DNA from: a virus
Lineage: Duplodnaviria; Heunggongvirae; Uroviricota; Caudoviricetes
Virus record (IMG/VR): IMGVR_UViG_2563366972_000005
Coordinates: 1 to 26,528 of that record
Strand: one strand, 5' to 3'
Length of the DNA: 26,528 nt
Below are positions 15,286 to 16,314 of the stretch, in pieces (the stretch's first letter is position 1; each line of letters starts with the position of its first letter). The notes under the pieces are model-generated. The model was not told the origin of the DNA. It saw only the letters and a list, made by a program, of their open reading frames with translations, and made no database searches. The translations under genes were made by a program, and so were the position numbers.

Positions 15286-15361
15286 GGCCCTTTAGCTCAG
15301 TGGTGAGAGCGAGCGACTCATAATCGCCAGGTCGCTGGTTCAAATCCAGCAAGGGCCACCA
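15286..15361 (+). tRNA. tRNA-Ile2 (anticodon CAU, lysidine-type, reads AUA), ileX-like
   Basis: Cloverleaf folded by hand: acceptor GGCCCTT/AAGGGCC, anticodon loop CTCATAA, T-loop TTCAAAT, encoded CCA; near-identical to E. coli tRNA-Ile2. Confidence 0.88.
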
Positions 15362-15362
15362 A

Positions 15363-15439
15363 CCGCCACTAGCTCATCAGGAAAGAGCGTCAACCCTTTA
15401 AGTTGAGAGTGCGAGGTTCGAGTCCCCGGTGGCGGTCCA
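15363..15439 (+). tRNA. Noncanonical tRNA-like gene (anticodon loop CCTTTAA: UUU at 34-36 but C at position 33; A.C mismatch in T-stem)
   Basis: Acceptor CCGCCAC/GTGGCGG, U8, D-arm GCTC/GAGC, T-loop TTCGAGT, encoded CCA; anticodon stem TCAAC/GTTGA. Confidence 0.55.
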
Positions 15440-15441
15440 GT

Positions 15442-15517
15442 GCCGACTTAGCTCAGTAGGTTGAGCAACTGACTTGTAATCAGTAGGTCACCAGTTCGAT
15501 TCTGGTAGTCGGCACCA
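15442..15517 (+). tRNA. tRNA-Thr (anticodon UGU), thrU-like
   Basis: Acceptor GCCGACT/AGTCGGC, anticodon loop CTTGTAA, T-loop TTCGATT, encoded CCA. Confidence 0.85.
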
Positions 15518-15520
15518 TAT

Positions 15521-15595
15521 GCGGGCATCGTATAATGGCTATTACCTCAGCCTTCCAAGCTGATGATGCGGGTTCGATTCCCGCTGCCCGCTCCA
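15521..15595 (+). tRNA. tRNA-Gly (anticodon UCC), glyT-like
   Basis: Acceptor GCGGGCA/TGCCCGC, anticodon loop CTTCCAA, T-loop TTCGATT; matches E. coli glyT as I recall it. Confidence 0.9.
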
Positions 15596-16147
15596 GCATT
15601 TGAAACAAGCCTTATTGTATCGTGGCACTGGCGTATTTTTTATTACGTGGAGGTTGTTTTAAAAAGACATTCTGTTCTCTGGCTATGATTGGAGGTCGGT
15701 TGTAGTCACAGTGCTGATTTTTTACAGCAGCAGAATGGTGCATTATCGGTGGAGATTTTGTATTTCCTGGCAGGGTCGGTGATGCATCATTCTGGTGTTG
15801 TAAACACGTTGCAGAGGCGTTCCTCAGGGCGAAGGTAATTAAGAGTTGGTTTAGTGGGAAATCACAGTATCCATACAGGACGGAATACTTCGGGAGGTGC
15901 TCGACGCCCAGGTTTTATAACAATCAAAAAATTCATCTCTTGCATTGACCAACCTTCTTCATGGCGGTTTTTTTTGGTAATTGATTGAATTGCATACTGA
16001 ATAATCATTGCATCGTTAAAATTATAACTAATTCCGAATATGCTGTGCTTGCTTATTGTTAGTTTGCTTACATTTCTGTATCTTGCTGCACCGCAGGATT
16101 CCCCTGTAACGACGATTGTATGATGAATCATTTAAACTTTGTAATTT

Positions 16148-16179
16148 GCCAGCCAGTCTCTGGTGGCTGGTTTTTTTTT
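16148..16179 (+). terminator. Rho-independent terminator (CCAGCCA...TGGCTGG hairpin plus T9)
   Basis: Read from sequence; terminates rightward transcription of the unexplained region after the tRNA cluster. Confidence 0.6.
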
Positions 16180-16232
16180 GCAAGGTGTTCCAGTAATTCT
16201 GTCGTCAGGCTGGATTCCCACAGAACAAAAAA

Positions 16233-16314
16233 CCGTCACTAACTCATCGGGTAAGAGTGCATAACGCGTATTGTTGTTTTGTGGTGCGGGGTTCGAGTCC
16301 CCGGTGACGGTCCA
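16233..16314 (+). tRNA. tRNA-like gene / probable pseudo-tRNA, paralogous to the gene at 15363, with expanded noncanonical anticodon region
   Basis: Intact acceptor (CCGTCAC/GTGACGG), D-arm (ACTC/GAGT), T-arm (CGGGG-TTCGAGT-CCCCG) and CCA, but 28 nt between D- and T-stems instead of 23; best anticodon stem ATAAC/GTTGT gives loop GCGTATT. Confidence 0.45.

Follow-up and report, generated by a model that had tools for sequence, protein, structure and literature searches.

Phage tRNAs have been recognised as counter-defence tools since 2023, on evidence from tRNA-rich virulent phages (T5, T4-like). P2 Old is the classic anti-lambda system, and RloC, as well as PrrC, cuts 3' of U33. Among host tRNAs, tRNA-Lys(UUU) is a target of PrrC and of PARIS AriB and a secondary target of P2 Old; together with tRNA-Thr(UGU) it is a recurrent target of PARIS, P2 Old, PrrC and Gifsy-1 HepS. 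In E. coli tRNA-Lys, the AriB cut falls between C40 and A41 and depends on the sequence U36AAUC/A41, where the slash marks the cut (PMC12409363, PMC11464382). The exchange U39A abolishes cleavage, A41C and U16C impair it (PMC12409363), and the resistant tRNA-Lys of phage T5 carries A39, C41 and C16 (PMC12409363, PMC11464382). P2 Old severs anticodon arms with cuts that follow the C in paired CNG motifs (positions 28-30 and 40-42); a cut 3' of a cytosine is typical of Toprim nucleases (PMC12445682). PrrC cuts 3' of the canonical U33, with tRNA-Lys and tRNA-Arg3,4 as its main substrates (PMC2610378). Here, we analyse two unusual tRNA-like genes of a lambdoid (lambda-like) prophage, contained in positions 1 to 26,528 of IMG/VR virus record IMGVR_UViG_2563366972_000005; the whole stretch of 26,528 nucleotides is referred to as the window. 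One gene has a lysine anticodon and is located in a cluster of four tRNA genes (the Lys-like gene, 15363-15439), and the other lies 640 nt beyond this cluster (the second gene, 16233-16314).

Our reading, which we put forward tentatively and at somewhat less than an even chance, is that the Lys-like gene encodes a nuclease-evading tRNA-Lys for late translation, and that the second gene encodes a tRNA mimic or is a remnant. We infer the nuclease-evading role because the Lys-like gene has lost the AriB, P2 Old and PrrC sites and keeps its decoding features. Both are real tRNA-shaped genes and probably not products of decay.

Two diverged members of the argN lineage

In Stx2 phages, the gene following ileZ is argN, which reads, element by element, CCGCCAU-UA-GCUC-AUCGGGAUA-GAGC-G-UCAGC-CUUCGAA-GCUGG-UUGCG-CGAGG-UUCGAGU-CCCCG-GUGGUGG-U-CCA. 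The Lys-like gene occupies the same slot, downstream of the late antiterminator gene Q and starting 1 nt after an ileZ-type gene. In the alignment, the two genes have in common the acceptor (CCGCCAY), the D loop (AUCRGGAWA), the T arm with its A51.C63 mismatch, and U73 followed by CCA. They differ in the anticodon loop, which is CCUUUAA (anticodon UUU, C33) instead of CUUCGAA (UCG, U33), and in a compensatory change of the anticodon stem from G30-C40 to A30-U40. By this comparison, the Lys-like gene is an anticodon-switched derivative, from Arg (UCG or UCU) to Lys (UUU).

The second gene aligns to the argN scaffold as well, although it does not directly follow ileZ. A string of 25 nt, covering T arm, acceptor and CCA, is common to both odd genes; it occurs twice in the window and in none of 100 shuffles, which bears out the paralogy proposed in the first-pass annotation. 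The acceptor and T arm of the second gene are exactly those of canonical members, namely an E. coli tRNA-Arg(UCG) with A30 and a U33-type tRNA-Lys. Neither odd gene has an arginine anticodon (UCG or UCU), the second having no standard anticodon at all. Sequence comparison shows both to be diverged representatives of the argN lineage, which occurs in Stx phages and other lambdoid phages.

All five genes of the region, which had first been placed by hand, were recovered by ARAGORN at exactly the same coordinates. The loop of the Lys-like gene lies at 15395-15401, with C33 at 15396, between the stem strands UCAAC/GUUGA; the T stem CGAGG/CCCCG contains the single mismatch A51.C63, and the discriminator U73 is followed by an encoded CCA. 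The gene retains the full cloverleaf, G18G19, the T loop, the UUU anticodon and U36-A37-A38. Direct reading agrees with the earlier description in every point. All four genes of the cluster pass the gathering score of the Rfam tRNA model (RF00005, 29 bits), the Lys-like gene with the lowest score (Table 1). Perfect or nearly perfect acceptor, D and T stems, G18G19, a T loop of the form UUCRANY and a 3' CCA are found in both odd genes. The Lys-like loop has the canonical 7 nt and A37; the gene fails one defining feature of a canonical tRNA, U33. RNAfold does not recover its cloverleaf, and the z-scores of the folding energy are weak for both genes (-2.08 for the Lys-like gene, -1.15 for the second), so thermodynamics is uninformative here.

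The databases already annotate the Lys-like gene as tRNA-Lys; PGAP gives this name to exact copies in E. coli genomes. The alternative that both odd genes are simply standard tRNAs, misfolded by hand, therefore holds by half: ARAGORN and PGAP do call the Lys-like gene a tRNA-Lys with a 7-nt loop, though C33 is real, while the second gene has a call from ARAGORN only, with a fold that is not standard, and no annotation from PGAP.

Arginylation of the UUU gene was judged unlikely, C35 being a major determinant for ArgRS. A suppressor or frameshift role for the window genes was rejected: the loop, of 7 nt, carries a sense anticodon, UUU. The Lys-like loop equals that of E. coli tRNA-Lys except for U33C (PMC12409363), and 36-UAA-38, the t6A37 determinant, is kept (PMC13276492). 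C33 occurs in a natural elongator tRNA, yeast tRNA-Leu(GAG), without substantially impairing decoding (PMC13492127).

The first-pass annotation had considered both genes as possibly decaying and suppressor-like. Its anatomy and paralogy stand; the suppressor role does not, and decay fits the Lys-like gene poorly. The A51.C63 mismatch does not point to decay but is an ancestral feature, because the argN scaffold has the same mismatch, and it is found in 42 of 74 distinct family sequences. The same 74 sequences show two-sided pair changes in all four stems. Pair 4-69 is CG in 66, UA in 7 and UG in 1; pair 7-66 is CG in 65, UA in 7 and UG in 1; pair 10-25 is GC in 70 and AU in 4, the latter being the type of the second gene; pair 30-40 is AU in 45 and GC in 3; and pair 52-62 is GC in 57, GU in 14 and AU in 2. 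These counts stem from a segment-wise parse, as the MAFFT family alignment misaligns the D stem (D-loop lengths differ).

The Lys-like gene is also widespread. Of 5,426 complete E. coli genomes, about 787 (about 14%) have a copy with an identity of at least 90%, and 2,145 have some member of the family; the type of the second gene is rarer (about 32 E. coli genomes at an identity of at least 90%). Copies of the Lys-like gene are carried by the isolated temperate phages PhiR47_1, vB_EcoM-606R7, vB_EcoS-689R5 and Evi, and by the PPompW prophages of O157.

Some further members of the lineage are of separate interest. A G3.U70 acceptor pair, the classical alanine identity element, is present in the Stx-phage argN at L002:1578-1654 and in PPompW-type copies at L003:2578-2653 and L274:401-476. 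Rare members have an 8-nt loop, CUUUUUAU (L101:3553-3630, with the ARAGORN 'anticodon' tttt), or a 12-nt loop (L237). One tRNA-like member belongs to the core genome of E. coli and is present in 5,170 of 5,426 genomes (K-12 NC_000913.3 345334-345414, L271:35-115; O157 copy at L005:3006-3086). It forms a 7-bp anticodon hairpin with the loop CCAGGA/CAGGAUU and overlaps the end of the annotated xtpA open reading frame (ORF), and yahM takes its annotated start codon from the acceptor 3' strand (ATGGCGGTCCA) of this member. The literature searched gave no link between yahM and a tRNA-like element.

Loss of nuclease determinants in the Lys-like gene

The Lys-like gene differs from every published AriB, P2 Old and PrrC determinant with which it was compared. 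At the AriB site, G39-U40-U41 replaces U39-C40/A41, and the D loop has C16. At positions 28-30 and 40-42, argN reads CAG/CUG and the Lys-like gene CAA/UUG, which is exactly the compensated pair change; the paired CNG motif is lost because G30-C40 has become A30-U40. The motifs that P2 Old cuts are still present in argN. Finally, C33 occupies the site at which PrrC cuts. Two features of a rescue tRNA, the anticodon of a nuclease-targeted host tRNA and changes at recognition or cleavage positions, are thus combined in the Lys-like gene only. Lys(UUU) and Thr(UGU) are the two tRNAs of the cluster that do not read rare codons. The Thr gene was considered as a further resistant variant and rejected, since its stem is that of the host and its AriB and Old sites are intact.

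According to our proposal, the Lys-like RNA would be made late in infection from the Q-dependent late region, would be charged by LysRS, and would sustain the decoding of AAA and AAG when a resident defence system destroys the host tRNA-Lys. The second gene would be a further copy whose anticodon arm is unable to present an anticodon in the standard way, and it may be a non-decoding mimic that competes for, or serves as a decoy of, defence nucleases which bind tRNA, or may be a hitch-hiking remnant.

Several observations speak against this proposal. U73 and an Arg-type body with A20 render charging by LysRS uncertain, and A51.C63 could weaken EF-Tu binding. Sister genes in other genera have loops of 5-6 nt that do not permit standard decoding, so that the conserved role of the lineage may be one other than decoding. 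The neighbouring tRNA-Thr is host-like, with the host stem, both CNG motifs and the UAAUCA site kept, and an extra host thrU gives little or no protection against P2 Old (PMC12445682). Positions 33-38 are invariant in all distinct Lys-type sequences seen, yet with about 14 variable sites among 45 free body positions this invariance is not significant, as statistically it cannot be told from the shallow divergence of the type. About a quarter of the Lys-type copies in IMG/VR have lesions (of roughly 100, 14 have C8 and 13 a 1-nt deletion in the D stem), and these variants are not called by PGAP; for this reason, selection is relaxed in many carriers. As to the second gene, its folding energy is not unusual (see the z-score above), and it does not form a conservation peak against its flanks, the block 16001-16450 being uniformly 95-98% identical among 13 prophage loci.

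The second gene

The second gene has perfect stems (acceptor CCGUCAC/GUGACGG, D stem ACUC/GAGU, T stem CGGGG/CCCCG) and, as had been noticed from the letters alone, five extra nucleotides: 28 nt (16259-16286) separate the D and T stems instead of the normal 23. The minimum free energy structure (-26.6 kcal/mol) is a cloverleaf in which the anticodon arm forms a 9-bp hairpin with one C.U, a 6-nt loop and a 3-nt variable region. In a homology-guided fold (-23.3 kcal/mol), the stem AUAAC/GUUGU (5 bp) closes the loop GCGUAUU, in which C33 and U37 are found, and the variable region has 9 nt. The arm thus measures 22 nt instead of 17, with GCGUAUU as the best 7-nt reading, and in neither predicted fold can an anticodon be presented in the standard way.

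The gene fails the canonical anticodon-arm tests and is not a member of any Rfam family. Rfam lists no tRNA match for it even at E<=10 (the listing omits two lower-scoring overlapping matches of the same clan). From this clan, the one match retained is tmRNA over 16209-16304, at 19.6 bits against a gathering score of 47, which reflects the tRNA-like top half only. A permissive Rfam scan of 15550-16700 listed no known small RNA (sRNA) for the second gene, and only chance-level matches and the sub-threshold tmRNA appeared.

The change of the D-stem pair from G10-C25 to A10-U25 is compensated and the elbow is intact, and these two facts argue that the second gene evolved as a folded RNA. Twelve near-identical copies were found in other prophages among the fetched loci. 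There are three variable sites inside the RNA, two of which are G-to-A exchanges that would keep pairing in an extended hairpin. The conservation of the gene is uninformative with regard to function, because the whole 450-nt block is equally conserved; the sequence upstream of 16000 is much more diverged in the 13 loci. The second gene is either a mimic or a remnant, and the family-wide loop pattern described below makes a reading of it as a decoy or regulatory RNA, which the first-pass annotation had also proposed, more plausible.

A hypervariable family in the slot of the Lys-like gene

Two separate scans of IMG/VR, GTDB genomes and metagenomes used the 3' and the 5' half of the scaffold, respectively. 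In each, one half of the molecule had to match exactly, and that half was free in the other scan. The family sequences are related to each other, and the counts below do not represent independent events.

In prophages of other Enterobacteriaceae, slot 2 of the Ile2-X-Thr-Gly clusters (between tRNA-Ile2 and tRNA-Thr) is taken by genes of 73-74 nt with an almost invariant body and a short, variable loop. They were found in Citrobacter, Yokenella, Cedecea, Pseudescherichia, Rosenbergiella and other genera (L131, L136, L142, L145, L184, L204 and about 100 more loci), with at least 25 different loops of 5-6 nt. Examples are UAAAU, UUAAU, UUUAU, AUGAU, GUGAU and CAGGU with 5 nt, and CACGGU, CACGAU, CAGGAU, CCAGGU, CUUGGU, CUCAGU and CGUUAU with 6 nt. 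In 72 distinct contexts, we observe 23 loops of 5, 6 or 12 nt, while the 3' strand of the anticodon stem, the T loop and the 3' strand of the acceptor are each identical in 71. The entropy per site is 1.2-1.9 bits at three loop positions and about 0 elsewhere in the free body; in the neighbouring genes it amounts to 0.29 bits for tRNA-Ile2 and 0.03 for tRNA-Thr. Up to six loops occur on one body haplotype, and five on one 80-nt upstream haplotype.

When the loops are aligned from their 3' end, those of 5 nt have the form NNN-R-U and those of 6 nt the form C-NNN-R-U; the Lys-like gene of the window reads C-C-UUU-A-A, and canonical members C-U-NNN-A-A/U. In this alignment, U33 is lost or replaced throughout, and the anticodon-like triplet varies. 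The labels given by ARAGORN (Phe, Leu, Ser, 'Stop', '???') are artefacts. The T stem is imperfect (A51.C63 or G52.U62) in nearly all non-canonical members and perfect in 6 of 7 members with a canonical loop.

Pairs of loci are 96-97% identical in the upstream kilobases and only 55-70% in the downstream ones. This places a mosaic junction at the cluster, and the loops are hence shuffled in part by recombination. The pattern would agree with diversifying selection, with a neutral loop on a body under strong constraint, or with the two together. In each case, the body is under selection in genes without standard decoding, and the family as a whole suggests a set of non-decoding mimics. In the most far-reaching version, which we consider improbable, the slot-2 genes and the second gene of the window would be 'programmable' non-decoding pseudo-substrates against anticodon-specific nucleases or readers, with purifying selection on the body and diversifying selection on the triplet, and C33-UUU would be the form directed at tRNA-Lys.

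Competing explanations

The slot-2 family leads to the main competitor of a decoding rescue tRNA, namely that both odd genes are non-decoding mimics. Their role would require the body and an anticodon-like hairpin, the loop triplet would serve as a variable 'address', and CCUUUAA would mimic tRNA-Lys. The invariant body beneath many loops, the high loop entropy, the single body haplotype with up to six loops, loops of the form NNN-R-U preceded by zero to two C with U33 missing or replaced, and the imperfect T stems of most non-canonical members all agree with this view, and the PARIS authors have proposed that some viral tRNAs may be competitive inhibitors. Yet no decoy tRNA of such kind has been demonstrated, and a phage tRNA resistant to P2 Old failed to protect the host tRNA (PMC12445682). 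Moreover, the loop of the Lys type has its full length of 7 nt, and decoding with C33 is possible in yeast (PMC13492127). The diversity of loops could equally reflect a neutral loop on a constrained body together with mosaic recombination, and the invariance of the body is partly built in by the exact-pattern scans, though each half was free in one of the two. On balance, we hold this explanation to be rather unlikely for the two genes of the window. Slightly less credit is given to functionless relics in decay, kept by a conserved mosaic linker or by a fold needed for RNase P processing of the packed neighbours. The narrow spacing of the four-gene cluster (spacers of 1, 2 and 3 nt), the frequent lesions, the uniform conservation around the second gene, the fossil-like relative at yahM and the mosaic junction would all be expected of relics. 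Relics would hardly explain that the slot-2 body is more conserved across genera than the adjacent, genuine tRNA-Ile2, that compensatory changes are two-sided in every stem, including A10-U25 of the second gene, that three independent nuclease sites are all gone from the Lys type, or that the loop is not random, with R37 and U38 kept.

The host has several tRNA-Lys genes for AAA and AAG, which are common codons, and supplementation of lysine decoding in late genes would bring no obvious benefit. Recoding, e.g., a frameshift at Gly-Lys slippery sites of tail genes, which here lie outside the window, is the related idea: slippage at the G-T site of lambda involves Gly(UCC) and Lys(UUU), and an 8-nt-loop variant exists (L101), but the loop in the window has 7 nt, not 8. 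The late-operon position of the cluster fits either version, and the Stx-phage partners ileZ and argN/argO read rare codons; still, we regard supplementation or recoding as very unlikely. The nuclease-evading tRNA-Lys, with the reservations listed above, remains the explanation that we tentatively prefer for the Lys-like gene.

Gene order and neighbouring features

The window carries ORFs for a tyrosine-recombinase-like protein, an S24/HTH repressor, a hok/sok module, a DUF968 protein, the antiterminator Q, a holin, and proteins of terminase and portal size. The tRNA cluster was assigned to the Q-dependent late region because Q sits upstream, and homologous prophages show the order Q, tRNAs, TerB and holin. 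The three remaining tRNAs of the cluster are canonical and host-like or identical to the Stx-phage gene (Table 1), just as first described. The phage Thr and Gly genes correspond to host thrU and glyT joined by 3 nt; in K-12 the order is thrU-tyrU-glyT, and tyrU with about 200 nt is missing from the phage cluster. Some related loci (L029, L140, L147) have an Arg(CCG) gene or a 180-nt spacer between the Thr and Gly genes.

An insertion of a 239-aa ORF separates Q from the tRNA cluster; the ETEC1731 prophage, similar in other respects, lacks this ORF. The ORF was considered as a linked protein that might explain the RNAs, and no Pfam, NCBIfam or convincing PADLOC match was found. Further elements of the window, among them a long hairpin with almost perfect pairing (about 90 nt) in the spacer that follows the cluster, and an sRNA-like unit ahead of the second gene, are included in Table 1.

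Table 1. Features of the window, in order of position along the given strand
Feature	Coordinates	Strand	Evidence
827-aa ORF, accessory-looking	1307-3790	-	Rv2179c-like 3'-5' exoribonuclease domain
Periplasmic solute-binding-protein-like ORF, accessory-looking	10249-11007	+	SBP_bac_11
hok/sok type I toxin-antitoxin module	11200-11502	+	Rfam sok 103.9 bits; Hok-family ORF 11290-11502
Late antiterminator Q	13383-14204	+	Pfam Antiterm PF03589, E=3e-50
239-aa ORF	14444-15163	+	PHROG 1521 match (unknown function); PADLOC AbiC marginal, E=0.004
Slot 1: tRNA-Ile2(CAU), ileZ type	15286-15361	+	ARAGORN Met/Ile2-CAT; Rfam 72.5 bits; 76/76 identical to Stx-phage ileZ
Slot 2: Lys-like gene, argN lineage by alignment, anticodon UUU, C33	15363-15439	+	ARAGORN Lys-TTT; Rfam 45.1 bits; argN alignment; PGAP 'tRNA-Lys'
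Slot 3: tRNA-Thr(UGU), host thrU-like	15442-15517	+	ARAGORN Thr-TGT; Rfam 74.1 bits; 2 differences from K-12 thrU
Slot 4: tRNA-Gly(UCC), identical to host glyT	15521-15595	+	ARAGORN Gly-TCC; Rfam 64.9 bits; 75/75 identical to K-12 glyT
Hairpin, about 90 nt	15718-15807	+	chance-level miRNA-precursor matches only
sRNA-like unit	16034-16181	+	ends in the strong intrinsic terminator 16148-16180; weak Qrr/VqmR-like matches
Intrinsic-terminator-like hairpin with T-run, 52 nt upstream of the second gene	16148-16180	+	terminator scan
Second gene, argN lineage by alignment, putative non-decoding tRNA-like RNA	16233-16314	+	odd ARAGORN 'Val-AAC' call
Intrinsic-terminator-like hairpin downstream of the second gene	16341-16365	+	terminator scan

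Comparison with known systems

The literature searched offered nothing specific on argN/ileZ/argO, tRNA-like decoys, a lambdoid tRNA-Lys or prophage pseudo-tRNAs. Likewise, no paper was found on C33 in the Lys-like gene, on its Arg-tRNA ancestry or on the loss of its AriB, Old and PrrC determinants, nor on the hypervariable slot-2 family. What emerges is a temperate lambdoid lineage, present in roughly one in seven E. coli genomes, with a lysine-anticodon tRNA on an arginine-tRNA body. If the proposed role is true, the statement that 'Lambda must acquire resistant tRNAs' would describe what has already happened in nature, and the Lys-like tRNA would be a compact natural reagent for dissecting PrrC, PARIS and P2 Old. 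The slot-2 pattern would point to a new class of RNA anti-defence elements, or at least to systematic mis-annotation by ARAGORN.

By position and sequence, the closest relatives are the ileZ-argN-argO clusters of Stx phages (e.g., Stx2a_F349, 933W type), which likewise lie downstream of Q and begin with the identical ileZ. The Stx cluster continues with argO and stx, whereas that of the window continues with host-derived Thr and Gly tRNAs and is followed by an extra diverged copy 800 nt downstream of the Lys-like gene. Non-decoding tRNA-like RNAs, such as the T4 stable RNAs C and D, the 'tRNA-Other' of Bacillus cereus and the tRNA-like domains of tmRNA and YrlA, resemble the second gene in their tRNA-shaped top half and a non-standard or absent anticodon arm, and some occur inside tRNA clusters; they have no sequence relationship to it. 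To our knowledge, none of them has a hypervariable anticodon-like triplet. Yeast tRNA-Leu(GAG) (PMC13492127) also has C33 in a 7-nt loop, yet it is eukaryotic, has another anticodon and no link to nucleases.

The phage tRNA-Thr(UGU) resistant to P2 Old (PMC12445682) follows the same principle as proposed here, an altered anticodon-stem CNG motif against a Toprim nuclease. In the window, however, the altered tRNA is the Lys-like one, and the Thr gene keeps both CNG motifs. The tRNA-Lys(UUU) of T5, which neutralises PARIS (PMC11464382, PMC12409363), is phage-encoded, too, with the anticodon UUU, substitutions in the AriB site and C16. It uses A39 and C41 where the Lys-like gene has G39-U40-U41, and it belongs to a virulent, tRNA-rich phage instead of a temperate lambdoid prophage. 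The Lys-like gene further differs in its argN (tRNA-Arg) body, C33 and U73. In its putative mechanism, the Lys-like gene thus most resembles the PARIS-proof tRNA-Lys of T5 and the Old-resistant tRNA-Thr, while by descent it belongs, with a switched anticodon, to the argN lineage.

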